This document shows positions 3,034-54,806 of a stretch of DNA of 58,504 bases, one piece after another. Positions within the stretch are counted from its first letter, which is position 1. Each line of letters starts with the position of its first letter. A program made the position numbers and the translations under genes. Source of the DNA: Leptolyngbyaceae cyanobacterium (GTDB lineage: Bacteria; Cyanobacteriota; Cyanobacteriia; Phormidesmidales; Phormidesmidaceae); the NCBI GenBank assembly GCA_965263355.1, contig CBDHHL010000018.1, positions 1 through 58,504 of the forward strand, read 5' to 3'. A model generated the notes under the pieces. The model was not told the DNA's origin and did no database searches. It saw only the letters and a program-made list of their open reading frames with translations.

Positions 3034-3342
3034 ATGATTAAGCAGGACGTTGCAGAAAGGGTATTTAATTTTTTGTTTCTACTGGAGACGGATGCAGATA
3101 ACTTGATCGACTCCGTTGTGGAAAAAGAGGAATATTTAGAGTTAGCCTGCAGTATGGCTAACGACGAATTGATCTATATCACTTGGTTTGAGCACGACAA
3201 TCCAAGCATAGATATTGCTCCCAAGGGAGAAGAAATAATGAAGGAATTAAAAGCTAAGATTCATTCTTTATTTATTCCTTCTATCCCTAAAAGCATCGAG
3301 TTTGCCGAACAGTGGGACTTAGTAGAGCCTCCTAGTTACTAA
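3034..3342 (+). CDS. Hypothetical acidic protein, coupled to the integrase
   Basis: ORF whose stop overlaps the integrase start; AT-rich. Confidence 0.65.
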   Translation: MIKQDVAERVFNFLFLLETDADNLIDSVVEKEEYLELACSMANDELIYITWFEHDNPSIDIAPKGEEIMKELKAKIHSLFIPSIPKSIEFAEQWDLVEPPSY

Positions 3343-13208: not shown

Positions 13209-13823
13209 ATGCCCCTACTGCAGAAATATATCAATGAACTAATACATTCGGCGGAAATTCCGGCCCACAGTATTGACAAAGAAGGGAAATTGCTAGCCGT
13301 TTCTTACGGGTGGTTAACTCTTTTAGGCTACACAAAAGATCAAGTGATTGGCCGTAAATCTACTGAGTTTCTGACTGAAGAATCCAAAAAGTTAGCCGCT
13401 AAAGTTTTACCTGAATATTACGAAACCGGGAAATGCCACGACATTCCTTATACCTTTGTCGATAGTGACGGACGTGGGGTGTCCGTGCTTTTGTCAGCGG
13501 ATAGCGTCTGGCGTGATGGCGAATTCCTTAGGTCAATCGCTGTGTTGAGACCTACCGATCCTCAAGCAGTGCGAGCCAGGGCCGACAAGATAACCGCATG
13601 GAAGCTTGGCCAGCAAACTGATGTGCAGGTGCTACTTGAAAACCTCGAAGTACTAGAACTCAACTGTGAGGTTACATTGAGATGCAAAAATGAAGCCTGG
13701 TTTACGTATGTCGTTTCGGCAGCTTCGTACTTTCAGGGAGTTGATGCAATTCGCTTGAAACTTGAAGGCTCTCAACGGGAAGTTTTAATAAACCTGGGCT
13801 TAGGGCAACGTCAAACCCCCTAG
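13209..13823 (+). CDS. PAS-domain sensor protein with small C-terminal domain
   Basis: HSIDKEGKLLAVS..WL.LLGY...VIGRKSTEFLTEES...TG....Y.FV..DG...VLLSA, a typical PAS/PAC S-box. Confidence 0.85.
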   Translation: MPLLQKYINELIHSAEIPAHSIDKEGKLLAVSYGWLTLLGYTKDQVIGRKSTEFLTEESKKLAAKVLPEYYETGKCHDIPYTFVDSDGRGVSVLLSADSVWRDGEFLRSIAVLRPTDPQAVRARADKITAWKLGQQTDVQVLLENLEVLELNCEVTLRCKNEAWFTYVVSAASYFQGVDAIRLKLEGSQREVLINLGLGQRQTP

Positions 13824-32784: not shown

Positions 32785-33276
32785 TTACACCTCCTGAAAC
32801 TGAAAAGAGACTACATCAGTCTCATCCTTCGGGTCTTCTGTCCACACAAACGCCCTTGTCGGTTCTGCCGTCCAGATAGGGTAGTAAAGCACTGTATCCC
32901 CATCATCGGCTGATGTACTGCTAGGGGCTAGGCTTTTAGTGGCTGGTGATGTTTCGTTGTACGGGTTGGTGTAATCGTATATCGTCCACGCTTGAGGATT
33001 GCTGTGGTGGACAGCTTCCATTCGCTTCAGGGTTTCTTGCTGGGTCAGGTCTAACCTTGCCTCAAATGTCCATACGGATTTGGGCCTGAAGGCAGTACCT
33101 GATCTTGAGATACCCCCCTCAATGCTGTACTCAATGGAATAGTATTCAGGATCTAAACGCGGATATTCGCTGGGCCGTCTACCAAAGTCGCCAGTTATTG
33201 TGAGCGTGTAATTACCTGAACTGGGCTTAGGGATAATTAAAACTATGCCTTTTTCTGTAGTAGTTGGGTATGCCAC
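32785..33276 (-). CDS. Distal tail protein-like
   Basis: Immediately after the tape measure; ends in F.F.EV. Confidence 0.6.
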   Translation of the reverse strand: MAYPTTTEKGIVLIIPKPSSGNYTLTITGDFGRRPSEYPRLDPEYYSIEYSIEGGISRSGTAFRPKSVWTFEARLDLTQQETLKRMEAVHHSNPQAWTIYDYTNPYNETSPATKSLAPSSTSADDGDTVLYYPIWTAEPTRAFVWTEDPKDETDVVSFQFQEV

Positions 33277-36200
33277 TATAGCCTCCTTGCCCGTTCACGG
33301 CTCAAATTAAAGACCACCTCAGCAGCGTCATTTTGAGGGCTTTCAGCTTCTATATTCAGGTTTTGAATTGTGGGAGGCAGGTTGTCTGGCAGTGCGTCAA
33401 TGGAGTCTTTAACATCGGTTAATTTACCGCTCAATTCTTGGATCTGACTATCTGCGATCGCTATCTCTTGTTGGGCATCCAAAAACGATGAAACACCACC
33501 TAGACCAACAGATTCAAGCACGCTACCGGCAAAGGGATTATCGGACTGAGCAAACCTAAATGCCTCATCAATGCTGAACCCGTCACCACTACGGCTAAAC
33601 CGCTGGGCCTGGTCAATCGCACGTTGCAAATCAGTTGCATCCTGGCCCCCAAACCCACCAGACCGACGTGCAGACCTAAGATTTTCCTCTAACTGGTCTA
33701 AGCTGCTCAGTGCATCCTCACCAGCTACATCCGACAGCCCAGACAGAGACGATACGAGACTATCAGCGGCCCTTGCTCTCTGTTCGGTGGCACTGGCCAG
33801 ATCCTTCTCAGTACGTAGCTGTTCATCAGCAAGGTCTTTCTGTTGTTCCTTGAATGACTGAATCGCCTGTTCTCGTCGTTCCTGCAATGCCGTCTGCTCA
33901 GCCAATTCTTCTTGAGCATTTAGCTGATCTAATTGAAGACTCAATATGTCGCGTTTAGAGTCAGCTTGAGATGCTAAAGATTCGGTTTCCTGCTCTCGTA
34001 ATTGAGTGATTTCTTGAAGTGCATTTATTTCCTCAAAGCTAGCCCCTTCAGCCCTTGCCCTTTCTACTGCAATACGAGACTCGGCAGCGGCGATCTGGCC
34101 TAGCTGTAGTTGTCTATCTGCATCCAGTTGAGCCAGTTGCTGTTGAATCCTTAACTGCTCTCGCTGAGCGCTGAAGTTGGCCTGAATAGATTGACGCTGA
34201 TTGAGTAGCAGACGATCTCTGATAGCCTCAACGCCAGCCACATCATCAACTGCTTCAGCTTCGGCTAATTTGCCCTCTAAATTCTGACGGGAAAGTGACA
34301 GGCGGGATTGCTCTAAATCTACCTGGGCACTAATTAAATTAGTCTGGTCTTGCAATGCCGTAGACGCGATGTTGGACTGGATATTGACTTGCTCAGCTTG
34401 GAGGTCATTGAGTCGTTGTTGTGCGTCTAACTGCTCTAATGCTGCTTTTTTAGCTTCCTCGGCCTTATCCTTGGCAGCATCAGCAGCGGCTTCTTGTGCT
34501 GCAATTTCTTTCTCAATGCCGTCCAGTGTCAGGTCTGCTATTTCTTCACGGATGCCCCTAATCTGATCAGCTGCATCCTTTTCTGAGATAGTCTGACGGC
34601 TGGCAAATTCTTCTATCCTGGCTATTTCTTCCTCTCGCAATGCAATGCGATCGCGGATGGCATCTTGCTCAATCGTAGATACCTGAGTGTCTGCCTCATC
34701 TTCCGTAATCAACCCAGTAGATTGATTCTGACGGACTGCTGCGATGCGGTTCTGTTGAGCAATTTCTATATTTGAGATTGCCTCTTTATTTGCTTGCTCA
34801 AATGCTTCAGCAGCCTCCTTATCAGCCTTAGCTCTTTCGGATGCTGCACGTTTGGCTGCACGTTCTGAATCGACTGCAATCCGTTCAGTAGCAGCCCGAG
34901 AAAAGCGAACAGACTTATCTAGCTCATCTTGCTGAGGGACAAACTGAGATGTATCAACTTCACTACCTTGACCACCTAAATTAAAGTTGTCCAATGCTGT
35001 TTTAGCGGTCCCTAGCACTGGCCCAAACTGGGCAAAGTTACTTAATGCGTTTTGTAATCCTGGTACAGCACCCGTGACCCGATCAGTCACATTTGCGATG
35101 GAATCAGCAATGGAACCAAGGGCCTCAATAGTTGTACTAGCGTTTTGAGCTAATTGCCCTAAGACGTTGGCAAACAACGTTAAGGATTCGATGACTGAAT
35201 CCTGATCAGCAATATTTGAGTAAGCGGAACCAAATGCAATCAATATGTCAGACGCAGCAATGCCAGCTCTGACCAACTGTAAGAGCGTCTCACCTGCGTT
35301 CTCAATACCATCAGCAAAGGCTTCAACATTGCCAGGGTTGGACAGGGCCTGAGTGATTCTATCGAGAATCTCAGCGACCGCTTCAGCCCCACTGCCTACA
35401 AAATTAGTCAGTGCTTCGCCAAGTTGTTCGGCTAATTCTGGATTGCCCGACAATGCCTCTCTTAATCGCTCTCCAGCCTCGGTGAGTGGGTCTAATGCAC
35501 TGGGGTCTATTTCTCTGAATATTGCGGCGAATGTTTCGCTGAATGCCGTCTCTAGTGGCTCAAGTCCTGCCCCTAATTCTTGCTGAAATTCTAGTACAGC
35601 ATTCTCTAAGCTTGCGATCGCTTGCTGTGCTGCTGGAGCTGAGCCTTCGATTTGCTGCAATCCCAGGGTGAAGCCTTCAGCAAAGGTAGCCGCATCCAGC
35701 CCAGTGGAAATGAGATCCAATAGCTCTGATGTGGTGCCAGTGGTTAGAATCCCAAGCTCTTGTAATCCATTGGCTGATGCAGTCAGAGCTACGGGCAATT
35801 GCTCTCCTAACTGCTGTCTTAATTCTTCTAAACTTACTTGTCCCTTAGCGAAAATCTGAGTAAGGGCATTAAACGCTAGCCCTGATTCTGCCGAAGATTT
35901 ACCAAAAATACCCAGCACCCTGGATGTCTCAAAAAATAGCTCATTGACAGCTTCTTGAGGTAGTCCGAACTCAGTAGCAGCGGCGGTAATGCCAGCATAG
36001 TTGTCTTGCAGTGCGCTGAATGATTGGCCGGTGCTCTCAGCTGTACGCCTTAAGAACTCAATTGACTCAGCAGCGGCTTCATTGCTGCCCAAGAGGATAG
36101 TTAACGCGTTGTCAGTGTTTCGTAGCTGAGCATTAGCCTGAATACTGGCAGCAACAAAGCCCGTTACGGCATTGGTTAGCGCTCCAAATGCATCAATAAG

Positions 36201-36605
36201 GCGGTCAAGAACAGCGACAGCAGCACCACCGGCCAGTCCAGACAGAACACTATTTAAGTTCCCTGTGTTCCTGCTAGTGTTTTGCGCTGCATCGCCTACG
36301 CCTCTGATTTTGTTTTCTAGCCGGTCTAATTCTTGATCAGCATCACCAGCAGCAAGTCTATTCAGGGAATCTTCAAGCTGGTTTACTTGAGCCTCAGCCC
36401 TCCCAGTATCTAGATCTATCTCGGCAGATCGAATACTGCTTAGCCTCTGCTCAATTCCTCCTAATGCCGATGCAATGTTAGGTGAGTCAATCCTTAAATC
36501 AATATCGCCAACACTAGCCAATCGACGCTCAAGGTCTGCGATCGCGCGGTCAGTGCTCGCCCGATCTATCCCAACCTTAAACAGTACTCTGCCAGCGTCT
36601 ACCAT
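33276..36605 (-). CDS. Tail tape measure protein
   Basis: 1109 aa, Ala/Gln-rich helical; ALTQIFAKGQVSLEELRQQLGEQLP tape-measure motif. Confidence 0.93.
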   Translation of the reverse strand: MVDAGRVLFKVGIDRASTDRAIADLERRLASVGDIDLRIDSPNIASALGGIEQRLSSIRSAEIDLDTGRAEAQVNQLEDSLNRLAAGDADQELDRLENKIRGVGDAAQNTSRNTGNLNSVLSGLAGGAAVAVLDRLIDAFGALTNAVTGFVAASIQANAQLRNTDNALTILLGSNEAAAESIEFLRRTAESTGQSFSALQDNYAGITAAATEFGLPQEAVNELFFETSRVLGIFGKSSAESGLAFNALTQIFAKGQVSLEELRQQLGEQLPVALTASANGLQELGILTTGTTSELLDLISTGLDAATFAEGFTLGLQQIEGSAPAAQQAIASLENAVLEFQQELGAGLEPLETAFSETFAAIFREIDPSALDPLTEAGERLREALSGNPELAEQLGEALTNFVGSGAEAVAEILDRITQALSNPGNVEAFADGIENAGETLLQLVRAGIAASDILIAFGSAYSNIADQDSVIESLTLFANVLGQLAQNASTTIEALGSIADSIANVTDRVTGAVPGLQNALSNFAQFGPVLGTAKTALDNFNLGGQGSEVDTSQFVPQQDELDKSVRFSRAATERIAVDSERAAKRAASERAKADKEAAEAFEQANKEAISNIEIAQQNRIAAVRQNQSTGLITEDEADTQVSTIEQDAIRDRIALREEEIARIEEFASRQTISEKDAADQIRGIREEIADLTLDGIEKEIAAQEAAADAAKDKAEEAKKAALEQLDAQQRLNDLQAEQVNIQSNIASTALQDQTNLISAQVDLEQSRLSLSRQNLEGKLAEAEAVDDVAGVEAIRDRLLLNQRQSIQANFSAQREQLRIQQQLAQLDADRQLQLGQIAAAESRIAVERARAEGASFEEINALQEITQLREQETESLASQADSKRDILSLQLDQLNAQEELAEQTALQERREQAIQSFKEQQKDLADEQLRTEKDLASATEQRARAADSLVSSLSGLSDVAGEDALSSLDQLEENLRSARRSGGFGGQDATDLQRAIDQAQRFSRSGDGFSIDEAFRFAQSDNPFAGSVLESVGLGGVSSFLDAQQEIAIADSQIQELSGKLTDVKDSIDALPDNLPPTIQNLNIEAESPQNDAAEVVFNLSRERARRL

Positions 36606-37535: not shown

Positions 37536-38245
37536 TAGGTCTGTGGAGCGATACGGTTAATTGAGTCAAACGCTACGGTGATGTTGCCCTGTACCTCAGA
37601 GCCATCAGCGGCAGGGCTGGCGATGCCCGTGGCGACACAAACACCCCAGATAATTGGGCCAGTTGAGAAGACTGTAGCGTCAGGGCTTTCAAGCTCACGC
37701 TCCACGTAAAGCTTCTGGGTGTTGTCCTTCGCGTACGCCAGAGTCTCATAGAAAGCGTCGTAATAGCTGTAACCACCGTTAAAAGTGCCGTCTGCTGTAC
37801 CTTCACCAATACTCACGGTAGACGTGGAATGGTCGAAACTGGAGAAGCTTGTTGTCCCCACAGATTCGTTGATGTCTGCAGACTGACGGATACGGGCAAC
37901 AGGCGGGAATACAAAGGTGCTGCCATCCGGGATGGATTCATTAGCCGAGACTTCCAGTGAAGTACCAGCACCAGCGTACAAAGTACGGACTCGGGCAATG
38001 ACGCTAGTCCCTGCAGGGGAAATAAACTCAAGTGGCTGACCGACTTGTATTTGAGAGCCAGTCAAGGCAGATGCAAGGGTTACTGTCTCATCTTCTGCTG
38101 TACCTTCGGTAGTGACATTGACAGCACCACTTACTGTCCCTGTGCCAGGCGTGGGACGAGACGTTGATCCGGTCGGGATTAAGGCAGCGCGAACAATCGT
38201 ATTTTTAGCCTGAGGTGGGCTAATGGGCTGGGTGGCTTGTGGCAT
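37535..38245 (-). CDS. Major tail (tube) protein
   Basis: Size, S/T/G-rich composition, position upstream of chaperones; GGAG RBS. Confidence 0.7.
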   Translation of the reverse strand: MPQATQPISPPQAKNTIVRAALIPTGSTSRPTPGTGTVSGAVNVTTEGTAEDETVTLASALTGSQIQVGQPLEFISPAGTSVIARVRTLYAGAGTSLEVSANESIPDGSTFVFPPVARIRQSADINESVGTTSFSSFDHSTSTVSIGEGTADGTFNGGYSYYDAFYETLAYAKDNTQKLYVERELESPDATVFSTGPIIWGVCVATGIASPAADGSEVQGNITVAFDSINRIAPQT

Positions 38246-38258
38246 AGGTCAAAAACTC

Positions 38259-38531
38259 CTATTTGTGGTCAAAACTGGAAAACTTTTGCATCGCCTGAGC
38301 AGCTTGATCTACAGGGTCAGATGCTTGTTGCAGCAAATTATTATTCATTGGCAAATAAGCAACAGAACCCTCAGGAATATCTTTTAATGCAGCAATTCTT
38401 AGCACCCCTGAGGCAGGTAACAGCTCAAGAGTTGCTGTACTTACAAACTCCTGAGTCTGAGGGTTGATAAAACCTAGGACTAGTGTTGAATTGATATTTT
38501 GCTTAGCAGGTTGAGCGGGTTGTGATGGCAT
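38259..38531 (-). CDS. Hypothetical protein in the tail operon
   Basis: ORF. Confidence 0.55.
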   Translation of the reverse strand: MPSQPAQPAKQNINSTLVLGFINPQTQEFVSTATLELLPASGVLRIAALKDIPEGSVAYLPMNNNLLQQASDPVDQAAQAMQKFSSFDHK

Positions 38532-38533
38532 AG

Positions 38534-38974
38534 CTATGAGCTGGCGTATTGATTAATCAAAAAAGTTTGCTGTTCAACAGAGTTAAGGTCAGAGTTTCGG
38601 ACAACACGGGGGCCAATATTGTCAATGATGTTGCCCAGTTCTTTGATCAACAGAGACCGAGCAGTTTTGGTTGTGGCTGTCACATCAAACTGCTTTAGCG
38701 TGATCCGAGTGGTGTGGGTAAGATAGAATTCTTTGTTCAGTAGAGGCGTAATATTGCTATCCACCTCAGGCTCAATGACACACTCAAGGCCCGTGTGCTT
38801 GATGGGCTTTTGCTCCCATCGGAAACCGCCAACAGTCTTTACATTGCCATCATCGATAGTGAGCGCCTGAACAGATTGCTCACTCCCACCACTAACCATG
38901 TACGTTTTGGTCCCAAGCTCAGCAGCTAGGGCTGTGGCAATGCGATCGCGTAGTTGCTGGAGAGTAATACTCAC
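38534..38974 (-). CDS. Tail terminator/completion-like protein
   Basis: Synteny and size. Confidence 0.5.
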   Translation of the reverse strand: MSITLQQLRDRIATALAAELGTKTYMVSGGSEQSVQALTIDDGNVKTVGGFRWEQKPIKHTGLECVIEPEVDSNITPLLNKEFYLTHTTRITLKQFDVTATTKTARSLLIKELGNIIDNIGPRVVRNSDLNSVEQQTFLINQYASS

Positions 38975-39375
38975 GCGGCTATCCTCCGCATATTTTCACC
39001 GAATAGCTCAACCGGGTTAGTAATTTTATGGGCTTCTTCTACTGGGTTCCTAGCAGGAAATTCATTGCCTTTGGTGGTCGTATAGCCAAAGAAAATTTGA
39101 GGGGCATAATTCACACCACCACCGCCCCAGCTGAACTCAGCTAGGAAGGGATTGATGAATTCGAACTCTTGAGAGTCACGAAAAGCACCTTGATCAACAA
39201 TATTTCGAGTCGTTCCAGCGCGTTCCCCAGATCGGCGGATTGTTTCACCTGGCCAGCCATAGCGGGGGGATTCAATAGCAGTCTGATACGCACTATCTAA
39301 ATCACGGACTGTCTCTTGTAGCCCGCTAGTCAGTGCGCTATAGATTGCAGCTGAATTGATCTGAGGTATAGCCAT
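38971..39375 (-). CDS. Neck/tail-completion protein (HK97 gp10-like)
   Basis: RNIVDQGAFRDS...NYA....G......PAR motif. Confidence 0.65.
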   Translation of the reverse strand: MAIPQINSAAIYSALTSGLQETVRDLDSAYQTAIESPRYGWPGETIRRSGERAGTTRNIVDQGAFRDSQEFEFINPFLAEFSWGGGGVNYAPQIFFGYTTTKGNEFPARNPVEEAHKITNPVELFGENMRRIAA

Positions 39376-39384
39376 GGGTACAGC

Positions 39385-39777
39385 ATGGCCGAGAATCTTC
39401 TCTGTAGGCTAAAATGCCTGATATCCTGGCAGCCGTCACCAATGACACACGAAATAAAAGCAACTGGCATCGAGTCTCAAACGTGGGACCGATGGAAGCA
39501 GGTAAAAGATTTAGTTGGTGGAGACACTAACGCCAAAGCAATGACCACGCTGGTTAATCTGGTCTATCTGCTTTATCAGTCCAGCCGATGGTCGGATATC
39601 CAGCGAAAAGCAGCCACACTAGTGACAGCCCAATGGATCGATAGAAGTGGCCAAGTCATTCCTATGCATCCATCAGAGGTGAAGCGGGTATCTATGGATG
39701 AAGGGAAAACGCTGGTTTTCACTCGCAGTCAGGGCGAACCTTACATGATCACTAGAGAGGCTTGGGAGAAGGGCTAA
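39385..39777 (+). CDS. Hypothetical protein, opposite strand within the structural operon (start probably 39442)
   Basis: ORF filling the gap. Confidence 0.5.
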   Translation: MAENLLCRLKCLISWQPSPMTHEIKATGIESQTWDRWKQVKDLVGGDTNAKAMTTLVNLVYLLYQSSRWSDIQRKAATLVTAQWIDRSGQVIPMHPSEVKRVSMDEGKTLVFTRSQGEPYMITREAWEKG

Positions 39778-40115
39778 GTCGCTGTCGCCTCAATAAAAGC
39801 TGCAAGCATCTTAGACATTTTTTCGATAAATAAGCTCACCGTTACCTGCTTCGTTGCAAAATAGGGGATTAATAGCTCAATAGGGTTTTCACCCTGATGC
39901 GGTGGCCTTGTCACCACCGCATAAAACACCCAGGCGAAGCAATCAGTTTGCCATTCCCCCCAAGCGTATATGTCATCCAATGACACATAGGATCGCTTCT
40001 CGGCACGCCACAAAGCTTCAGTGAGCGCATCCACAGACTTTAGGTTCCACCCAAACTCATGCATAAGTTCACGAAGCTTGCTTATACCCTCAAGGTTACT
40101 CATGCCAACGTCCAT
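39774..40115 (-). CDS. Hypothetical protein
   Basis: Coupled ORF. Confidence 0.55.
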   Translation of the reverse strand: MDVGMSNLEGISKLRELMHEFGWNLKSVDALTEALWRAEKRSYVSLDDIYAWGEWQTDCFAWVFYAVVTRPPHQGENPIELLIPYFATKQVTVSLFIEKMSKMLAAFIEATAT

Positions 40116-40498
40116 AGTGCCGTAAACTTTTCACCTATCTCCTTAGCCGCTATCTCAATGGGAAAGTCACCTATTGAGCACTCTAGCCGTCCTATCCCAG
40201 AAGGCAATTCACACTCACCAATAGGTCTTCTTTGCTTTCGTAACTCTGGCGTAAATTTATAGTCTTGAGTGTCATCTACCCAGGCATAAAACACGCTGGT
40301 GTAAGTACTAGTGCCTGGAAACTGATTCTCAACAATTCTTGCAGCCTCTGCTTGCCCTGAAACTGGCACCAATCTAATCGGGATAGCTACAGCACCCGTT
40401 CCACTAGCGTCCCCGCCCTCTCCATCGTCAGTGATGGCTGTGGCTAAACGAAAGGTTACCGTTGTTTGATATGCTCCGGTTCCGTCAAATCGTGCCAT
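40100..40498 (-). CDS. Head closure/stopper-like protein
   Basis: Synteny (first gene of the neck/tail cluster); beta-rich. Confidence 0.45.
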   Translation of the reverse strand: MARFDGTGAYQTTVTFRLATAITDDGEGGDASGTGAVAIPIRLVPVSGQAEAARIVENQFPGTSTYTSVFYAWVDDTQDYKFTPELRKQRRPIGECELPSGIGRLECSIGDFPIEIAAKEIGEKFTALWTLA

Positions 40499-40531
40499 TA
40501 GCTAAGTGATTGCGATCGCCCTAAGTTTAGC

Positions 40532-41002
40532 TTAATCCCAAGAAATTACCCGCACGTCCCATGTTTCAACGGGTACGCTGAAATCAAAATCAAATCTGAT
40601 GTTCTCTGCGGTATTAGGCCCCAGTAATTCTATAGTTTGTTCTTGAGTTTGAGGCAGTCGCCCTGGCGCATAGCCAATTGCTTCAATAACTACATTTTTG
40701 ACTAAGTCATCGCCAGTGTTGTGGATATTCCCTTGGATTTCTGTAGTGTCCACAAGCTCATTGAAAGCATTAAATCGTCTGTTGTTATAGAACGATCCTG
40801 ACCACACCCGAGCATCATTACGAACACTTTCAACTGTGCTAACACCAACCACGCTGGGGGTTGCCTGCCTATTGTCGCCACACATATGGCTCAAGTCTGT
40901 CTGAACCCCACCCATAATGATGTAGCACTGGGGCAAAGCATAAGCAGGGGAAGTAACACCTGCAGTAACGAGTGCAGAAACAAGTAGAAAGCGCTTAATC
41001 AT
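40532..41002 (-). CDS. Secreted protein (signal peptide, CY...DL..MC motif, Ig/FxLYD-like C-terminus)
   Basis: MIKRFLLVSALVTAGVTSPAYA signal; G.I.N.G...V.NV.I pattern. Confidence 0.7.
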   Translation of the reverse strand: MIKRFLLVSALVTAGVTSPAYALPQCYIIMGGVQTDLSHMCGDNRQATPSVVGVSTVESVRNDARVWSGSFYNNRRFNAFNELVDTTEIQGNIHNTGDDLVKNVVIEAIGYAPGRLPQTQEQTIELLGPNTAENIRFDFDFSVPVETWDVRVISWD

Positions 41003-41091
41003 AGAAAACCTAGGAACAGTAGCTAACGATTTCAGTGTGTAGCATTTGCCCTCAGGATAACTCAGACAACGCTAGGCCTTTGGCGAATACC

Positions 41092-41142
41092 TCACCTACC
41101 ACTACCCCGATCCGCACCGAATACCCAGAAAAACCAAAACAT
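41092..41142 (-). CDS. PatS-like RGSGR peptide MFWFFWVFGADRGSGR (16 aa)
   Basis: Manual translation ATG...CGG GGT AGT GGT AGG TGA; AGGAG RBS 7 nt upstream; hydrophobic leader plus C-terminal RGSGR as in Anabaena PatS. Confidence 0.75.
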   Translation of the reverse strand: MFWFFWVFGADRGSGR

Positions 41143-41423
41143 AATCGCACTCCTGTACTAACGTGCGTACTATCTTCTGAGTGACACACGGTTATCAGGG
41201 ATGACCAAGGCTATCTTTGCGTAGGTTTTATGTTTATGAAGGCTGGTTAATCTCGCAGATATCCTCTCTTACCCACCAACAGCCACCCTCAGGTTTCTCT
41301 ACAAACAGGTAACCAGGCATAGACCATGGCGGCTCCCTCAGGATGCCGTAGCGTGGCCTTGGTTTAGAGTTGCGGCGTGGGCCTGGATTGTCGGGCAGGC
41401 GTACTTTGGTCATTGCCTTGGGT

Positions 41424-41457
41424 TCTCATTTAAAGACGATCTGTTCTTTAAATGAGA
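41424..41457. other. 13-8-13 inverted repeat (recombination-site or operator geometry)
   Basis: TCTCATTTAAAGA-CGATCTGT-TCTTTAAATGAGA. Confidence 0.7.
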
Positions 41458-41479
41458 CAGTTTTAAAAGTGTTAAAATT

Positions 41480-41520
41480 AAAGCACCGAGCGGATTCAGA
41501 CCCCTGCTCGGTGCTTAATT
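41480..41520. other. Strong hairpin in the leader of ORF 41542
   Basis: AAGCACCGAGC...GCTCGGTGCTT. Confidence 0.6.
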
Positions 41521-41541
41521 GACACAATGGATTAACACACT

Positions 41542-42621
41542 ATGAATATAGCACAAGAACCCATCGCGTACTTTGACAGGAAGCGATTGATCACACGCTC
41601 CGGGCTAAAGCCGACCGAGAGGTTTGTCTTGCATACGATAAACGACTACTGCTCAGGTGACGGGACAGGGGCGTTCCCGAAGCAGCAGACCATTGCCAAT
41701 GACACTGGGTACAGTCGCCAGACAGTTAACTGCGCAATCAAAAAGCTTGAAGCCAAAAAGATCATTACTCAGATCCATAACTACCGAGAGCACGTTGGTG
41801 GACGCCGAAACAGCAATTATGTAGTTCATTGGCCAGAACTCGAAACCCTTGAAAATAGCAAATGTCAAAAAACCCGACATCGATATGTCAAAAAAACCGA
41901 CAACATATCTACCCATAGTGATCTACCCATAAAAGAAATAAAGTTCATTCAAAATGAACAGAATAAAGCGATTCAAGATGAATCCGCAGTCAGCAATCAA
42001 GAAATTTCTTTTTCTGATTCTTTTGACCAGGGTGCTGTTAACCCTGAACCCAATGGCCAAGATCCAAAAGTACCCTCAAGGGTTGATACGGTTCCGCGAA
42101 GTTCGAAAAAACCGAACAAACGTGGAGCAAGGCCAAACGATTTGGCTTATGACAAAAATGGATGGTTGCAGTTACCCAGTGGTAGGGCTCACAAACTTCC
42201 TCGATGGCTTGCTTATCGATGGATGCAATTAACCTTGGCTGTTGATTATTTAGACTTTGAAGTCGTTGGCATCGCACCAGACGATCAACCGGTGTTGCAG
42301 ACCAGAGATGGGTTAATGACGGCTAACTATGCATTTGGCGATCGCGATAATTCTGGCCAGTATCCTCTAAAGCAGCTGAGAGACTGTGCAGCGGTCGATA
42401 GGGGACAAAGCCATGTATTGAGCCAGGGGTTATATAACGAGGCCCTTGAGGACTATTTTGAGCAGTGCAGTAAGTGGTGCAAGGATGCAGGGGATCAAGC
42501 GTTGGCCATTATTGAACGGCAAACAGCCCTTAGGATGGTTGGGTTCTGGGAGTCTGAGTACGATGACATGCAGTACTCTTGGTCTGAGTTGGATGGATAC
42601 CTCTGGGAGGAAGCCGCATGA
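41542..42621 (+). CDS. Second HTH replication-initiator-like protein
   Basis: LKPTERFVL..I.DY.......FP.Q.TIA.DTGYSRQTV..AIKKLE HTH_36-type motif; internal direct repeats. Confidence 0.75.
   Translation: MNIAQEPIAYFDRKRLITRSGLKPTERFVLHTINDYCSGDGTGAFPKQQTIANDTGYSRQTVNCAIKKLEAKKIITQIHNYREHVGGRRNSNYVVHWPELETLENSKCQKTRHRYVKKTDNISTHSDLPIKEIKFIQNEQNKAIQDESAVSNQEISFSDSFDQGAVNPEPNGQDPKVPSRVDTVPRSSKKPNKRGARPNDLAYDKNGWLQLPSGRAHKLPRWLAYRWMQLTLAVDYLDFEVVGIAPDDQPVLQTRDGLMTANYAFGDRDNSGQYPLKQLRDCAAVDRGQSHVLSQGLYNEALEDYFEQCSKWCKDAGDQALAIIERQTALRMVGFWESEYDDMQYSWSELDGYLWEEAA
41862..41902. repeat. Two 18-bp iteron-like direct repeats
   Basis: ATGTCAAAAAACCCGACA (41862) and ATGTCAAAAAAACCGACA (41885). Confidence 0.7.
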
Positions 42622-42627
42622 CCAGTA

Positions 42628-43119
42628 TTGAGTGACAGGCTATACTTTTCCCATAGCAACCACATTGGAATAGTGGCGAGAAAGTCTAAATACGAGAAAC
42701 ATAAGCCAGGTGTGTTCCGTCATTTTCAGGAAGGCTTTAGTGCTGGCGAGGTTCTGCGCATTCCGGAATACTCAAAAATCCCTTCAAGCACCATCTACGA
42801 TTGGGCTAAAGAGTTTAAACTGATACAGAGTTTAGGTCATGAGTCCGGGTTCATTCCGGAAAAGGAAAGCATTCCGGAAGCCCGATTAAGGCTAAAAAAA
42901 ATAGACCCTGAAGATCCTATTCAGAGAGTCATTAACGCCCTGTGGGATATTGTTGATGACCCCAGTGACAAAGGGGCAAATGTGGCTGTTCAAGCTTGCA
43001 ACACCATCCTTAAGGGTATAGCTATGCAGTACGACATTGCATCTAAACAGGAGTCAGAAGAAGACGAAGCAGCACCAGAACCCGCAGAAATCAACATAGC
43101 TGGGCATGGGGAAGCGTAA
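42628..43119 (+). CDS. terS: Terminase small subunit-like protein
   Basis: N-terminal HTH (IPSSTIYDWAK); directly upstream of the large terminase. Confidence 0.65.
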   Translation: MSDRLYFSHSNHIGIVARKSKYEKHKPGVFRHFQEGFSAGEVLRIPEYSKIPSSTIYDWAKEFKLIQSLGHESGFIPEKESIPEARLRLKKIDPEDPIQRVINALWDIVDDPSDKGANVAVQACNTILKGIAMQYDIASKQESEEDEAAPEPAEINIAGHGEA

Positions 43120-44458
43120 AGGTAGTGTCACGGTAGAAATCCCATCTAAATTAACAAGCGTCTTCGCTGGCCCTGCTAGATACCGCTGCGCCTATGGCGG
43201 GCGTGGTAGTGGGAAGTCATATACGTTTGCAAAGATGGCCGCGATTCGTGGCTATGCTAATCCGTTAAGAATCCTATGTACTCGTGAGCTGCAAAACAGT
43301 ATTAAGGATTCAGTTCATGCAGAGATAAAGCGGGCTATATATTCAGAGCCTTGGTTAGAAAAGTTTTACGACGTGGGAGAGACCTACATACGTGGTCGTA
43401 ATGGGACTGAGTTTTTATTCAAAGGATTGAGGTTGAATTACCAAGAGATTAAGTCAACCGCTGGTGTAGGCATTTGCTGGATAGAAGAAGCGTCAGCGGT
43501 GTCTGATGAAAGCTGGGAGACGCTGATACCTACCATCCGAGAGCCTAACTCTGAAATATGGGTGACATGGAACCCATACGAAGAAATGGATCCGGTTCAT
43601 CAACGGTTTATCGAAAAACAGCCTAGTGCATTGAAAATAGCTGAAGTTAATTGGAGGGATAACCCTTGGTTCCCTGCAGTACTAGAGCAGGAAAGACAAG
43701 ACTGTAAACGCGACTGGCCAGAGGAGATATATGAACACATTTGGGAAGGTAAGGTTAAACGTGAGTCTGACCCATGGCAAGTGATTCCAACGGCATGGGT
43801 AGAAGCAGCAATGAAACGCTGGCAACCTCCCACGGCACCACAAACAGCCCTAGGTGTTGATGTGGCCAGAGGTGGCAAGGATGAGACTATACTGGCACCC
43901 CTCCATGGATGGCACTATGGTGAGCTGATCACGTACCCAGGTAAATCAACCCCAGATGGGGCAAGTGTGGCGGCACAGGTCCAACAGCATTTAACCCCTG
44001 GCAGTGCTGCATATATTGATGTCGTTGGTGTAGGTAGCTCTGTTTATGATCATTGCACTGGGCTAGAGGCTTACCCTGTCAGTGCTGGCACCAAGGCAGA
44101 AGACCCAAGAGGCCAGCGGTATACCGATAAATCAGGTCAGCTTGAGTTTAAAAATCTTCGCTCTTGGATGACATGGAGGTTTAGAGAGTTGTTAGACCCT
44201 GACGGTGGAGTGGATATTGCATTACCGCCGGATAGTCGATTGAAAGCAGATCTTTGTGCGCCTCGATGGAAGATGGAGCCGCCATTGGCAGGTAGTAAAG
44301 CTCAGGGCCGGATCGTTGTAGAGAGCAAGGATAAGGTGAAGGAGAGGATCGGGAGATCACCGGATAGGGGTGATGCTGTGCAGTATGCAGCGATTGGGAG
44401 AGACCATTTTGCACCCGATACTACGCTAATTGACAAACTTTCTGCTATGTACGGTTAA
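43106..44458 (+). CDS. terL: Terminase large subunit (PBSX family)
   Basis: YGGRGSGKS Walker A, WIEEA Walker B, PTIR, WNP; nuclease LGVDVARGGKD and SPDRGDA. Confidence 0.95.
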   Translation: MGKRKGSVTVEIPSKLTSVFAGPARYRCAYGGRGSGKSYTFAKMAAIRGYANPLRILCTRELQNSIKDSVHAEIKRAIYSEPWLEKFYDVGETYIRGRNGTEFLFKGLRLNYQEIKSTAGVGICWIEEASAVSDESWETLIPTIREPNSEIWVTWNPYEEMDPVHQRFIEKQPSALKIAEVNWRDNPWFPAVLEQERQDCKRDWPEEIYEHIWEGKVKRESDPWQVIPTAWVEAAMKRWQPPTAPQTALGVDVARGGKDETILAPLHGWHYGELITYPGKSTPDGASVAAQVQQHLTPGSAAYIDVVGVGSSVYDHCTGLEAYPVSAGTKAEDPRGQRYTDKSGQLEFKNLRSWMTWRFRELLDPDGGVDIALPPDSRLKADLCAPRWKMEPPLAGSKAQGRIVVESKDKVKERIGRSPDRGDAVQYAAIGRDHFAPDTTLIDKLSAMYG

Positions 44459-44486
44459 CATAGGGCTATTCCTGAAATGCTTCACC

Positions 44487-47345
44487 ATGGCCGATCCTGA
44501 AATCATCCACTTAGACGGGGTATTGTCTGCCCTGAACAAATCCATGATGGTCAATCGACAGACCGGCATGGGTACAACGCGAGATTCTTTTACTGAGACC
44601 GAAGTTGGTTATGTCCCACTGTTGGGTGAACAAGAGCTGAGATCTTTGCATCGTGGCAATTGGTGGATTAGAAGGATTGTAGATACTCCACCTCAAGACA
44701 TGGTGAAAGGTGGTGTAACGCTTAAGCATCCCAGCAATGACGCTGAAGCAGTAGCCAAGGTATTGGGACTGTATGAGGCTGGTGGTGAACAATCGCCCTA
44801 TAGCCGCAAGATGGGCGGCGCTCAGGCATTCCAGAAAGCAGAGACCTATGCCCGCTGGTTTGGCCGTGGCTATGTTGTGCTACGGGTTAATGGGGATGAG
44901 AGGCTAGATAAGCCCATTAAAAAAGTACGGTCGTTTGAGGGCTTTTCTGTCCTAGATCGCTACCAACTCAGACCAGACAATGGGTCTCTTAATTATGAAG
45001 ATCCTGAGTACTACCAAATTATTCGCAAATACCAGCGTAATGGCAGCGGGTTAGGGGGAGCAGATTTTGGGCAGAAGATTCATGAGACCAGAGTATTACC
45101 GTTTGATGGTGCATTCATCCATCCTTACGACATTAATTTAGAAGCCTCGGACGGTGGGCACGACTCCGTTATTCAGGCATTGTATGAGTGTTTCTGTCGG
45201 CATTATTCAGTACAGAACGCGATCGCTAAGGGCCTCGATAGTTACTCACTGTTTAAGGTGGCTATTGCTAATCTTGGTGAGCTGATGATGCAGGATGAAG
45301 GTGAGGCTGCACTGGCTAAAACACTAAATGCCATCGCTGAACAAGTCAGCCTGCATCGGATATTAGTCCAGGACTCTGACGCTGCTAACAGTGAATTCCA
45401 AGAGCGCTCATTCACTGGGGTCAAAGAAAATGCTGATAGCTTCAAGGATGAATTAACCGCTGCATCCTGGCCCTTGCCTCATTACAAAATCTGGGGCAGT
45501 GTCGATAAAGCTGGATTGGCCGACAGTGGGGGCGCTGAATCCAGGGCCTATGCTGACGATATCAATACACTTCAGAAATCGAAGTTTTACGATAATCACC
45601 GTAGAGTATTCAATGCCCTGTTTGAGGCTACAACTGGCACGATTCCTGAGGGTTACGGGCTGGAGTATCCCAGCATCTTTAAGAGCACTCCCAAGGAAGA
45701 AGCTGAAATTAAAAAGACCGAGGCAGACACCTATTCTGTTTTGATCACGGCTGAGGTATTGAGCCCCCTTGAGGCAAAACTAGCCTATGCCACCGGGGAG
45801 GATATCAGTAACGTTCTGGATGCTGAAGCGATTGAGGCAGAGTTAGAGCGGGCTAAAAAGACTGAAGTTGAGCAGGTTGGACCAAGAACCGACAATAAAT
45901 ACAGCCACATCAACTTTAAGCCCCCTGAGCCTGTCCAGAACGCATTTAAGCGGGCGTTGAGCGCTACTGAATCGGGCAAGTTAAAGATTGGCTCAGGCAT
46001 GGAGGCAGCAACCAAAGCGTGGGCTAAAAAGCTAGCGAATGGGGAATCCGTTAGCCCTGAAAAGGCTAGACAGGGCTACCGATGGTTTAAACGCAATGCT
46101 CGCTTTGAGGGCTCCCCTAAGGATTCGCCAGCATGGGCTAGTTGGGCTTACTGGGGATACTCTGAGGGTCGTAGCTGGTTTAACCGGCTATGGCGTCAAA
46201 TGGAAGCCGTAGAAAAGACAGATGATTCTACACCAACAAAACGCATTCTTAAATGGAATGACTTTGAGATAGGGCTTCAATATCTACCTTTTGAAAGGCG
46301 TCATGGTCGTATTTTACCTGCTGGCTATGGTCACTTTAGGAAGACTAAAGGCGCTGATGGAATGGCTGTAGACGTTTATGTTGGCACCCAGCTATCTAGC
46401 CCTAAGGTGTTTGTGGTTGATCAACTCATCAATGGTGAATTTGATGAGGAGAAAATGATCATTGGAGTAGGGACCATAAAGGAAGCTGAAACCATTTATA
46501 CCTCAGCGATGCCCAGTGAAATGATGGGCGGCATCCGTGAAATCAGCTTAGAAGACTTGGCGGGATATCGGACTAACACTGAAACCAAGGCAGACGCGGA
46601 ACCATTCACCCCTAGCTCTGGCGATGGCGACTTTCAAAACCTATCGCGGCTACTCTCTAGTTTCGACTGGGCCACGATCCGCAGTATTGCAGAGGAGCAG
46701 GGCTGGCAGTGGGACGATGATTTAGCCCGATACCTGAATATTGAGGGAAACGTTGTCACCCATCAGCAGATCTTAGATGTCACGCAAGCTGAACTCGCTA
46801 GACTCGAAATTGAAGTAGAAGAAGCTACAGCGCTGCTAGTTGAAGGCGATGCCACCGTGCCCGAGTGGGAGGAGTTGATCGCAGAAATTACGATAGGTGC
46901 TGCGTTGCTGTTCCTGCTGTTTGGCCTTGGGAATAAACAGCCCGATGAAATCACTGAGAGCATGGCCAGAACACACCTTGAAAGGCAGTTTGGCTTTTTG
47001 CAAAACTTTGCTAAGTCAGTGCTGGCTGGTGGAATGACCGCTAACGGTATTGCAGCCAGAGCAAAGCTGTACCTGCATGATGCGCAGTTGCTGTATGGGT
47101 TAGCTCAGGAATTTATACACCCTATTGATGTATACCCGTTCTACAGCAACGCGCTGGGGCCTTGCCAAAGCTGCCCGGAATGCCCGCAAATAACAGCTAA
47201 AGGGATTGTCCCTAGAGGTACCTTAAAGCCCATTGGCCAGCGTCAGTGTTTCGTTAATTGCTGCTGTCAGTGGTCTTTCCATAAAACCCAGGATGAGCGG
47301 ATTGATGGGCCAACGGTGCTGACGCTTAAGAACGGATGGCTTTAA
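44487..47345 (+). CDS. Portal protein (DUF1073 type) fused to an unknown domain, an InPase-like domain and a MuF-like head morphogenesis domain
   Basis: TGMGT.RD, W..RRIVD.P..DM portal motifs; YGHFRKTKGADG.AVDVYVG...VDQ...FDEEK; C-terminal C.SCPEC...PIG...C..NC.C. Confidence 0.85.
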   Translation: MADPEIIHLDGVLSALNKSMMVNRQTGMGTTRDSFTETEVGYVPLLGEQELRSLHRGNWWIRRIVDTPPQDMVKGGVTLKHPSNDAEAVAKVLGLYEAGGEQSPYSRKMGGAQAFQKAETYARWFGRGYVVLRVNGDERLDKPIKKVRSFEGFSVLDRYQLRPDNGSLNYEDPEYYQIIRKYQRNGSGLGGADFGQKIHETRVLPFDGAFIHPYDINLEASDGGHDSVIQALYECFCRHYSVQNAIAKGLDSYSLFKVAIANLGELMMQDEGEAALAKTLNAIAEQVSLHRILVQDSDAANSEFQERSFTGVKENADSFKDELTAASWPLPHYKIWGSVDKAGLADSGGAESRAYADDINTLQKSKFYDNHRRVFNALFEATTGTIPEGYGLEYPSIFKSTPKEEAEIKKTEADTYSVLITAEVLSPLEAKLAYATGEDISNVLDAEAIEAELERAKKTEVEQVGPRTDNKYSHINFKPPEPVQNAFKRALSATESGKLKIGSGMEAATKAWAKKLANGESVSPEKARQGYRWFKRNARFEGSPKDSPAWASWAYWGYSEGRSWFNRLWRQMEAVEKTDDSTPTKRILKWNDFEIGLQYLPFERRHGRILPAGYGHFRKTKGADGMAVDVYVGTQLSSPKVFVVDQLINGEFDEEKMIIGVGTIKEAETIYTSAMPSEMMGGIREISLEDLAGYRTNTETKADAEPFTPSSGDGDFQNLSRLLSSFDWATIRSIAEEQGWQWDDDLARYLNIEGNVVTHQQILDVTQAELARLEIEVEEATALLVEGDATVPEWEELIAEITIGAALLFLLFGLGNKQPDEITESMARTHLERQFGFLQNFAKSVLAGGMTANGIAARAKLYLHDAQLLYGLAQEFIHPIDVYPFYSNALGPCQSCPECPQITAKGIVPRGTLKPIGQRQCFVNCCCQWSFHKTQDERIDGPTVLTLKNGWL

Positions 47346-48271: not shown

Positions 48272-49384
48272 GTGCCTGTACGCTTTGATCTCGCACCTAT
48301 CGTAAATAGCGAACAACTAGAAGATGGTCGCCTTCGAGTGAGAGCAACATTTTCTAAAGTTGGCCCATTGGTATATGTCGATGGTGATGGTAATGCTCGC
48401 ACAGAAATTGTAGAAGCGGCTGAGCTATTCCGCGCTGACAGCTTAGAAACTGCTGGCCTAGCACCCGTTACGCTTGGCCATCCAAAGGTGGGAATGGTCA
48501 CACCTGAGAACTACAAAGAATTTGCCGTTGGTGCTAGTGGCTCAACTGTTTTGGCAGATAAACAGAGGGGCTTAGTTGAGGTTGTCTTTTTGGTGGGTGA
48601 TGCCGAAGCCATCGAAGCGGTAAAGCGCGGTGATGCTTCAGAGGTTAGTGCTGGATACTACGCCAATATCGAGGACCGCAACGGGCAGTTATATCAAACA
48701 AACCGCCGCTATAACCATCTTGCTTTAGTACAAAAGGGCCGCGCTGGGCCTCAAGTAAGGGTCCACATGGACTCAGATGACTGGGCTATTCAAACTGATC
48801 AATGTTCTAAAAAGAGGGCTATGAAAAAGTACAAAGGGTTTGAAATCGAGGACGGTCTGTACGAGATTGTCACCGACATGGAAAAGCAGATCAAAGACAT
48901 GAAGTCTAAAAAAGATTCTGCTGACACTACCGCAACTACAGCCATTACCGAGCTACAGGCTAAAAACGATATGCTCACTGCTCGTGTAGATGAGCTAAAA
49001 GCAGAGCGTGACAATCGCCTAGATGCCAAGCAAGTAGACGCACTGGCCACTGCTCGACTAGATGCATTCACCAAGGCTGAGCCTTACTTAAAGGATGCCA
49101 AGTTTGACGCATCTATCGAGGCTATCGAGTGGAAGCGCCAAGCAGTAACAGCGGCACGACCATCACTCAAGTTGGATGGCAAGGATGACGCTTACGTAAA
49201 TGCCGCCTTTGACATGTTGGCAGAGCTAGGTGTTTCTAACCCTGGCCAAGAGAACAAGGGCGCCCTAGACGCAGCAGCAGCTGGTGGTGCTCATGATGGT
49301 GCGGCTGGGTCAAGAGAAGACGAATATGACGCTCGTGCTGATGAAGCCGACATCAACAAACTATTTGAGGGGGCTAGTAACTAA
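48272..49384 (+). CDS. Prohead protease/scaffold (DUF2213)
   Basis: DG.LRV.A....G...Y; PVTLGHP; EVSAGY; YNHLALV..GRAG; DGKDDAYV.AAFD. Confidence 0.9.
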   Translation: MPVRFDLAPIVNSEQLEDGRLRVRATFSKVGPLVYVDGDGNARTEIVEAAELFRADSLETAGLAPVTLGHPKVGMVTPENYKEFAVGASGSTVLADKQRGLVEVVFLVGDAEAIEAVKRGDASEVSAGYYANIEDRNGQLYQTNRRYNHLALVQKGRAGPQVRVHMDSDDWAIQTDQCSKKRAMKKYKGFEIEDGLYEIVTDMEKQIKDMKSKKDSADTTATTAITELQAKNDMLTARVDELKAERDNRLDAKQVDALATARLDAFTKAEPYLKDAKFDASIEAIEWKRQAVTAARPSLKLDGKDDAYVNAAFDMLAELGVSNPGQENKGALDAAAAGGAHDGAAGSREDEYDARADEADINKLFEGASN

Positions 49385-49905: not shown

Positions 49906-50877
49906 ATGCCCGGAAGTATTTTATATAGAAGCCTGCAACAGAAAAAGAATCGAGTCCTACGCAAAAAGCGCCGTGGCTTAGATTTTGTTGGATCTACTTG
50001 GATCCCTACCGTGATGGACATTCGCCCTGGTGCTCGTACCATCATCCAAGAGCAGGTAGAAGGCTATGGCGAAGCGATTCTACAGTCACCTGACGCTTCA
50101 GATTTTCGCTTAGTTAATATTGATGCTGGCGAATCTGAATACCGCATCTTTATGGCTGCTGCTGGCTATCCGGTAACCTTTGGTGAGATGAACGCTCAAC
50201 AGTTCGCCCAAGGTAATGGCCAGCAATACGTTGCCTCTGATGAGAAGATGCGCGTCACCCAACGGGCGATCTTTGAGCAGGTCAATGAGCTTACCGCTTT
50301 TGGTAGCACAGCACATGGCGTTACTGGTGCGCTCAACAACGCATCTGTAACGCTGACTGATTCCACTTTTGACCCATTCAATGCTTCGAATTCTTCTGAA
50401 GCGATCGCAGAGTGGTTCTTAGGTGAAGCTGGAGCGATGTTGACAGCATCGAACAACGTTGAATATCCCAGTACAGCAAAAATCAGTACTGACCTGTTTG
50501 TGCTGTTCACGTCCAAGAAAATGACAGACACAGGTGAGACCGTTCTGTCCTACATCCTCCGTACTCAAAGGGAAGCCGCAACTGCTGGCCGCCCTACCAT
50601 TTCAAGCATTGAACTAGCTTACGAATGCCAGTCTGCAGTTCTTGAAGCCAATGGCGCTCAATCAGGTGGCACTAACAAGGATCGGATCTGGTTTTATAGC
50701 CAGGATGAAGAAAACCTAGTCAAGCACATGCTCTCGGGTGCTATCCAACTGTTCCCAGAAGATTGGATTGGCCAGGCCCCAGGCAAAAAGATTTACCCCA
50801 TGTATTGCCTGTGTAGCGAGCTAATCGTCAATTACCCTGGCGCAATGCGTTACTTGGACCACCCTAAAAAGAGCTGA
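49906..50877 (+). CDS. Major capsid protein (DUF2184/encapsulin-like HK97 fold)
   Basis: Position and size; FG....GVTG.LN and IVNYP.AM.Y motifs; AGGAG RBS. Confidence 0.88.
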   Translation: MPGSILYRSLQQKKNRVLRKKRRGLDFVGSTWIPTVMDIRPGARTIIQEQVEGYGEAILQSPDASDFRLVNIDAGESEYRIFMAAAGYPVTFGEMNAQQFAQGNGQQYVASDEKMRVTQRAIFEQVNELTAFGSTAHGVTGALNNASVTLTDSTFDPFNASNSSEAIAEWFLGEAGAMLTASNNVEYPSTAKISTDLFVLFTSKKMTDTGETVLSYILRTQREAATAGRPTISSIELAYECQSAVLEANGAQSGGTNKDRIWFYSQDEENLVKHMLSGAIQLFPEDWIGQAPGKKIYPMYCLCSELIVNYPGAMRYLDHPKKS

Positions 50878-54053: not shown

Positions 54054-54806
54054 ATGCAACCCATCCCTAACCTTATTTCAGCGCTCGATTATAGCGGTAT
54101 TACGCTATTAGGCTGCTGGGTAGCGTGGCAGGTACGGAGGTTTGTAAGCCATGGTCTGTTATGGGGCCTACTTATAGGCTGTGGCTTGTTTTTGATGAGC
54201 TGTGCAGAACATCATCTAACCCATGCCATAGGCTCTAGTTGGGCAGCAAGGGCAACATGGTTTTGCGCGATCGCTTCAACTGCTGGATTCATGGTGCTTT
54301 GGTGCTTTACACCGCGATTAATCCAAGCAATCACCAAAGTTGCACATCAAGCGACCACTGACGCTCTCACGGGACTGCATAACCGTGGTAGTGGCAACCG
54401 TATACTAGGGTGTCTCCAAGAAACGGCGACAACACCAACAGGGGTTCTATTTATTGACATTGACCACTTCAAGGCCATAAACACTAAGCTTGGTCACGCT
54501 GGTGGGGATAAGGTTCTGCAGTCAACAGCAACTACAATCAGAAACCAAGTACGCAAAGGTGATTCAGTGATCCGATGGGGCGGTGAAGAGTTCTTGATTG
54601 CTCTCCCAGGGTGCTCAATAAAAGAAGCTGCTAAAATCGCTCAAAACATCTTGCTATCAGTGAGGGTTGGTAATCAATGCACAGCATCTATCGGTGTGGC
54701 TAGCCTACTCCCTGGCAACCAATGGGAGGATGCTGTAAACCTCGCTAACAATCGAATGAGAATCGCAAAAGAACGAGGGCGTGATTGCGTTGTTACAAAT
54801 GCATAG
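54054..54806 (+). CDS. Diguanylate cyclase with N-terminal 3-TM ethylene-receptor-like sensor domain
   Basis: DALTGLHNR, FIDIDHFKAIN, GHAGGD, RKGD I-site, RWGGEEF; TM2 has SCAEHH (CxxxH). Confidence 0.9.
   Translation: MQPIPNLISALDYSGITLLGCWVAWQVRRFVSHGLLWGLLIGCGLFLMSCAEHHLTHAIGSSWAARATWFCAIASTAGFMVLWCFTPRLIQAITKVAHQATTDALTGLHNRGSGNRILGCLQETATTPTGVLFIDIDHFKAINTKLGHAGGDKVLQSTATTIRNQVRKGDSVIRWGGEEFLIALPGCSIKEAAKIAQNILLSVRVGNQCTASIGVASLLPGNQWEDAVNLANNRMRIAKERGRDCVVTNA

Follow-up and report, generated by a model that had tools for sequence, protein, structure and literature searches.

Peptides ending in RGSGR are the textbook diffusible inhibitor of bacterial Turing-type patterning, and so far they are known only as the products of host genes. 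Phage-encoded short peptides of another kind, the arbitrium AimP peptides of Bacillus phages, are made as short precursors that yield a 5-6-residue peptide binding a transcription regulator. The closest host system is PatS of Nostoc/Anabaena PCC 7120, described in the available parts of two papers as a 17-aa precursor that is processed to RGSGR or ERGSGR (PMC12756182, PMC7761841), and the accessible text of the former adds that PatS is not universal even among heterocyst formers (PMC12756182). In the same parts, ERGSGR and HRGTGR bind Nostoc HetR and its DNA binding is lost (PMC12756182, PMC7761841); HRGTGR (PatX-6) binds HetR at 88 nM, and both PatS-6 and PatX-6 abolish the HetR-DNA interaction (PMC12756182). 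PatX is further reported there to require export and cleavage by PatP, with no binding of the unprocessed form to HetR (PMC12756182).

The role of HetR in non-heterocystous filamentous cyanobacteria is termed a mystery in the available part of a study on Leptolyngbya BL0902, where deletion of hetR changed 993 genes and the effects of a patX deletion on the transcriptome looked largely independent of HetR (PMC11298460). The idea of patterned cell death, attributed to Elhai and Khudyakov (2018), is mentioned in the accessible text of PMC12756182. A literature search, which covered mainly titles and abstracts and left most subscription journals outside its coverage, found no published phage-encoded RGSGR peptide or PatS/PatX mimic, in line with the original prediction that no phage PatS mimic had been described. 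Here we analysed a 58.5-kb stretch of phage DNA (the window) with a 16-codon open reading frame (the mini-ORF) that ends in RGSGR, and we tentatively read it, from its sequence and surroundings, as a candidate mini-gene that quite possibly encodes a PatS/PatX-type mimic of the HetR inhibitors.

The phage and its genes

The window is a tailed phage. Terminase, portal, capsid and tape measure genes were identified with Pfam and PHROG (Table 1), so that the phage nature of the contig, already assumed in the original prediction, is borne out, and the structural and packaging genes occur together with the HIP1 signature of cyanobacterial DNA described below. The window also encodes an M15 peptidase and two DNA methylases. 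Since the head genes run rightward and the tail genes leftward from 41.0-41.5 kb, this region is a divergent control or variable region.

INPHARED contained no close phage, either by DNA or by terminase protein, and in the ESM Atlas the capsid matched only generic phage clusters. NCBIfam gave no match for seven neighbouring proteins, and the 156-aa protein belonged to no family in Pfam, PHROGs or NCBIfam. Neither the 156-aa nor the replication protein had a match in IMG/VR; the replication protein also had no plasmid match and a single weak one (8e-6) among 401 cyanobacterial genomes. Comparison of the PAS-EAL protein with plasmids gave no clue to the host.

Two further observations concern the gene content. 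The portal ORF carries an extra InPase-like domain (PF18823, residues 627-711) and a C-terminal part matching PHROG 24776, and its product is predicted to be a fused portal/minor-head protein. The GGDEF, PAS-EAL and PAS genes make up a c-di-GMP signalling set, whose PAS-EAL member has a homologue in the related contig G001:C10 introduced below, and this set could also affect host motility or aggregation.

Table 1. Features of the 58.5-kb window, with positions counted from its first nucleotide
Feature	Position	Strand	Evidence or remark
16-codon ORF plus stop, MFWFFWVFGADRGSGR*	41142..41092	minus	read from sequence
AGGAG, Shine-Dalgarno-like	41154..41150	minus	read from sequence; ends 7 nt 5' of the mini-ORF ATG
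Hydrophobic leader MFWFFWVFGA, 10 residues	41113..41142	minus	read from sequence
DRGSGR codons, host-type PatX hexapeptide	41095..41112 (RGSGR core 41095-41109)	minus	sequence
Mosaic junction, 4 nt past the mini-ORF stop	41088..41091		homology to X4 record 25 covers 41088-42602
59-aa ORF, conserved, just upstream of the mini-ORF	41413..41234	minus	same strand as the mini-ORF
Two perfect inverted repeats, divergent control region	41424-41457, 41481-41516		13-nt arms, 11-nt arms
HTH_36/replication-initiator-like gene, divergent	41542..42621	plus	PF13730 2.4e-12, PHROG 270 2.2e-14
156-aa ORF, downstream of the mini-ORF	41002..40532	minus	signal-peptide-like N-terminus
Large terminase	43106-44458		
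Portal fused to further domains, 971 aa	44430-47345		
Protease	48272-49384		
Capsid	49906-50877		
Tape measure	33276-36605	minus	
Weak integrase-like ORF	3342-4436		under the Pfam cut-off
GGDEF gene	54054-54806		
PAS-EAL gene	54781-55899		
PAS-only gene	13209-13823		

The mini-ORF and its surroundings

The mini-ORF lies alone in a non-coding gap of ~240 nt, 91 nt after the 59-aa ORF and 89 nt before the 156-aa ORF, and all three are encoded on the minus strand. Its codons read ATG TTT TGG TTT TTC TGG GTA TTC GGT GCG GAT CGG GGT AGT GGT AGG TGA. The 16 codons, the AGGAG site 7 nt upstream, the hydrophobic N-terminus and the RGSGR-stop ending were thus confirmed as first described, and the strand, which had been left unstated, is minus. 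The mini-ORF is the sole RG[ST]GR-stop across the six frames of the window; a second RGSGR, at 18860, is frame-internal and immediately follows stop-rich sequence.

As to its layout, the 16 codons ending in ADRGSGR-stop fall within the pattern of PatS-type genes (~13-17 codons, [D/E]RGSGR and then a stop), and the resemblance to PatS drawn in the original prediction holds in this respect. The placing of RG[ST]GR near the C-terminus after H, Y, D or a similar residue, which marks PatX, is likewise found, as DRGSGR in the window and as HRGSGR in variants. An N-terminal Sec signal peptide is absent from the mini-ORF, whose leader has 10 residues and no basic n-region, and there is no linkage to hetR, as a Pfam scan of the 71 window ORFs of at least 90 aa detected no HetR.

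The 59-aa ORF next to it has a homologue in G435 (66% identical), a cyanobacterial genome introduced below, and four of its five listed variants are synonymous, the fifth changing R to K; it is therefore a real gene, and it is probably co-transcribed with the mini-ORF. A search of 40400-41700 gave no sigma-70-like promoter, and no DIF1 motif (TCCGGA) lies upstream of the mini-ORF, the nearest TCCGGA being at 42762, although a phage gene need not share the DIF1 regulation of its host. The RNA fold of 40990-41235 was not significant (z = -0.51), and Rfam gave no matches. A 15-nt imperfect inverted repeat (80% complementary, 41005-41019 and 41215-41229), which may be due to chance, flanks the mini-ORF cassette.

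The probable host and its PatX peptides

We then considered which bacterium the phage infects. The octamer GCGATCGC, which we take to be the HIP1 palindrome typical of many cyanobacterial genomes, occurs 30 times in the window against 0.57 expected from shuffles (largest shuffle value 4), at a density of 0.51 per kb that compares with 0.46-0.52 per kb in the DNA of G435. The best named relatives of the terminase, 78-81% identical over half the protein, come from two MAGs titled 'Cyanobacteria bacterium'. Judged from the octamer count and these terminases, the host is almost certainly a cyanobacterium, as had been proposed.

An alignment-based scan located one terminase relative, in the genome G001, on a 63.7-kb contig (G001:C10), and a DNA search of 172 genomes of the order of G001 gave matches in G001:C10 and in G435. 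The tail module of the window (40400 down to ~29100) has its counterpart on an 8.16-Mb contig of G435, in a stretch with 44-83% protein identity, and G001:C10 matches this module plus several other genes. Both genomes contain hetR, which was found in 165 of the 172 genomes of the order. The order list also includes G005, a MAG titled Trichocoleus, a genus that NCBI places in Leptolyngbyales. From these relationships we infer that the host is a thin filamentous, hetR-bearing cyanobacterium. To our knowledge, the likely hosts (Trichocoleus-type, Leptolyngbyales) form no heterocysts, and the original suggestion that the peptide blocks heterocyst differentiation thus finds no support in the order associated with this phage; nor was the accompanying idea of a signal for the lysis/lysogeny decision supported.

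The residue before the motif could be compared directly with host usage. In G435, patX (L115:164-583) lies directly upstream of hetR (826-1752), and its product has nine RGSGR units behind a signal peptide, of which seven are DRGSGR, mostly as Q-A-DRGSGR-I, and two are YRGSGR; the units of G001 PatX are two ERGSGR and two YRGSGR. An RG[ST]GR ORF with 2-9 motifs was found at 32 of the 34 hetR loci examined in the order. Over these loci the motif is preceded by Y (38), H (38), D (16), F (7), W (7), N (5), E (2) or G (1), so that D ranks third, and it is followed by I (31), L (28), V (26) or, more rarely, another residue. The end of the phage peptide, A-DRGSGR, equals one G435 PatX unit at the protein level. 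Since DRGSGR is the main unit of G435 PatX, the D in place of E, which the original prediction had rightly recorded, is host-type usage and not the deviation for which it had been taken. At the DNA level the phage unit shares 12-17 of 24 bases with the G435 units, which is no higher than the common residues dictate and speaks neither for nor against capture from host patX.

Several features of host PatX genes are recorded here in their own right. In the order of G001 and G435, the hetR-linked PatX (L115, L091, L123-L152) is a multi-copy precursor consisting of a signal peptide and 2-9 RG[ST]GR units with short spacers, and the residue before the motif varies by lineage (Y, H, D, F, W, N, E). 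The NCBIfam model NF047413 misses the multi-motif PatX of both G435 and G001.

Two Nostocales genomes, G003 and G004 (L095, L096, L097, L099), contain several ORFs of 12-22 codons that end in ERGSGR, DRGSGR or GRGSGR and have Shine-Dalgarno-like sites. Each has a 13-codon ORF ending in ERGSGR, and there is also a 12-codon ORF ending in DDRGSGR. The number of PatS-like mini-genes per genome is thus larger than the single patS usually cited.

Variants of the locus and a mosaic junction

Variant contigs from four sequencing runs (X1-X4) of two studies were compared with the window over 38000-46000; X1 and X2 may be the source sample of the window itself, whereas X4 is a microbial-mat metagenome from another study. 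The leader shows a single listed change, 41122 T>C (X3, X4), which is synonymous at Val. The residue before the motif changes from D to H by 41112 C>G in the minor contigs of X1, in X3 and in X4, and the stop is replaced by Leu through 41093 C>A in X3 only, extending the frame by 10 codons. The 15 bases of the RGSGR codons carry no listed change in any of the four runs. Host PatX often has H in front of the motif and L behind it, and all three changes, the synonymous one included, fit host usage.

The mini-ORF shares its DNA with two overlapping ORFs, 41189..41052 (minus) and 41035..41184 (plus). Each of these gains a premature stop in X3, where the former also loses its start, and of the overlapping frames only that of the mini-ORF remains open throughout the variants of the four runs. 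On the other hand, 3 changes of the X3 contig fall within the 51 nt of the mini-ORF, versus 23 in 1100 nt overall, a density that gives no sign of extra constraint.

The X4 variant is a mosaic. The part of it that is homologous to the window takes in the mini-ORF, the 59-aa gene and the replication-initiator-like gene and is flanked by unlike sequence left and right. Of the two junctions, the first is just past the mini-ORF stop (Table 1), and the second is within the replication gene, 19 nt from its 3' end. The 156-aa ORF is thereby replaced by unrelated sequence, while the mini-ORF is kept. Phage mosaics usually have their junctions at gene borders. The position of the first junction thus mildly supports a gene end at 41092, and the extent of the mosaic ties the mini-ORF to the early/replication module and not to the tail operon.

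Occurrence in wider relatives and chance expectation

Conservation of the mini-ORF had been set beforehand as a check, and it fails beyond the close variants. The mini-ORF is absent from the entire G001:C10 contig, where the lone RGSGR directly follows a stop, from ~65 kb of G435, and from eight loci with homologues of the 59-aa gene (in 5 of the 172 genomes). No RGSGR ORF was present at seven terminase-related loci (five from IMG/VR, two from metagenomes), which share the terminase only. These relatives have other sequence in place of the whole stretch from the terminase to the tail genes.

The homologue of the 59-aa gene in G435 has a separate point of interest on its 3' side. Just beyond it and a terminator-like hairpin, three copies of a 36-nt direct repeat occur at a spacing of 78 nt (L108 1921-2112; G435:C5, ~757.8 kb), resembling a CRISPR array and adjoining a response-regulator gene.

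We next estimated how often such an ORF would arise by coincidence. Among 1500 simulated windows (first-order Markov, window composition), RGSGR-stop was present in 19 and RG[ST]GR-stop in 28, and an open in-frame ATG 5-25 codons upstream, together with a Shine-Dalgarno core, was counted for 1.56% of all codon positions. The joint chance is therefore ~2 in 10,000 per window (about 1.3% x 1.6%), a figure computed before the hydrophobic leader, the intergenic site and the host-type residue preceding the motif are considered. For a single window this is small, but across a scan of very many it is not, and it is therefore the context that has to decide. As controls, 1.34 Mb of terminase-flanking loci contained a single RG[ST]GR-stop, and a codon-restricted A-D-R-G-S-G-R-stop pattern gave 22 matches in IMG/VR, all of them GC-rich (0.53-0.71). 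None of the 22 had a Met-started leader, and HIP1 was likewise absent from them. The exact mini-ORF and the pattern F-G-A-[D/H]-RGSGR-stop had no match in IMG/VR.

These figures bear on the main rival reading, that the mini-ORF is a chance frame, in which the ~240-nt gap would be an untranslated spacer or a regulatory region and the RGSGR ending a coincidence in a very large scan. We regard this as a live possibility, though not a likely one. With a chance of 2 in 10,000, tens of such events are expected among the some 250,000 windows scanned, and the absence of the mini-ORF from every more distant relative examined, the lack of a promoter-like site, the loss of the stop in X3 and the variant density, which is no lower inside the frame than outside, all agree with it. 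Against this, the coincidence would have to strike in a phage of the only bacterial group with this peptide and to match the A-DRGSGR unit of that group, and the chance matches in IMG/VR come without start and leader. It would also leave the mosaic junction at the mini-ORF stop as an accident, together with the persistence of its frame through all variants when the two that overlap it are broken.

Other possible roles for the peptide

A translated small peptide with another role was also considered, namely a Phe/Trp-rich leader tuning the 156-aa gene, or a hydrophobic membrane-active peptide with a basic tail that is like RGSGR only by accident. Phe or Trp occupies six of the first eight residues, which recalls the leader peptides of aromatic amino-acid operons, and the mini-ORF lies 89 nt upstream of the next gene. 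However, the region shows no terminator or antiterminator signal, its fold is not significant, no terminator-like site precedes the next gene and Rfam matches are lacking. Furthermore, the downstream gene is replaced in X4 with the mini-ORF retained, and ten hydrophobic residues are too few to span a membrane. A role of either kind is thus improbable.

It is very improbable that the mini-ORF is a decaying remnant, a piece of a host patX repeat that the phage took up and that no longer functions. The protein-level identity of A-DRGSGR with host units and the stop lost in one variant would fit, but the DNA match to the G435 units is no closer than the common residues dictate, and the mini-ORF has an ATG and a ribosome-binding site of its own and a leader unrelated to host PatX.

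Discussion

We return to the reading that the mini-ORF encodes a mimic of the PatS/PatX-type HetR inhibitors, for which the following route can be proposed. Transcription would start in the divergent control region beside the replication gene and take in both the upstream 59-aa gene and the mini-ORF, which would be translated from its own AGGAG site. The leader would then be removed, as in the 17-residue PatS, leaving a peptide of 5-6 residues. This peptide may bind the hood domain of the host HetR and stop its DNA binding, by analogy with PatS-6 and PatX-6 in Nostoc. As a result, infected or lysogenic cells, and perhaps their neighbours in the filament, would be held in a HetR-off state. Two points count against this reading: the phage leader is too short and lacks the charge of a standard Sec signal, whereas PatX has to be exported and cut, and in Leptolyngbya BL0902 PatX seemed to act largely without HetR. 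The match of the motif to the host dialect is striking, but the mini-ORF is confined to one phage lineage.

Since the likely host is without heterocysts, the pay-off for the phage would be the re-setting of a large HetR regulon and not a block on heterocysts. Control of patterned cell death is an alternative pay-off. A broader proposal is that phages infecting filamentous cyanobacteria have time and again evolved or captured minimal HetR-inhibitor genes tuned to the dialect of the host (here DRGSGR/HRGSGR), and thereby silence HetR, the master regulator of multicellular behaviour, in infected cells and in neighbours linked by septal junctions, as a morphogen mimic working on the scale of the filament. 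In non-heterocystous hosts such a mimic might suppress a HetR-dependent cell death or fragmentation that removes infected cells from the filament. This broader proposal is doubtful at present.

If the HetR-inhibitor reading is true, this would be the first case of a virus mimicking a developmental morphogen of bacteria. A phage copy would also give a handle on the part that HetR and PatX play in filamentous cyanobacteria without heterocysts, as its effect has presumably been selected by the phage. Independently of this, the multi-copy PatX with its lineage-specific residue before the motif, in up to nine units, is useful for predicting phage-host pairs.

In comparison with known systems, the mini-ORF is like arbitrium AimP in being a phage-encoded short precursor of a putative 5-6-residue peptide acting on a transcription regulator. 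However, AimP has a phage-encoded receptor and a full secretion signal, whereas the presumed target here is a regulator of the host, with no phage receptor in evidence. With PatS it shares the very short length (16 versus 17 codons), the hydrophobic N-terminal part, the acidic residue before RGSGR and the stop directly after it, a likeness at a length at which sequence homology cannot be demonstrated; unlike PatS, it is encoded by a phage, has D for E, lacks the DIF1 motif and belongs to a phage whose likely hosts are not heterocyst formers. Host PatX, for its part, has a Sec signal peptide of 25-30 residues, spacers, 2-9 motifs and a position directly upstream of hetR, whereas the phage ORF has one motif, an uncharged 10-residue leader and no hetR neighbour. 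In the motif itself, the phage ORF nevertheless resembles PatX (the Asl2332 type, NF047413, and the multi-motif forms), with DRGSGR as the main unit of G435 and the HRGSGR of the variants as the other common form.
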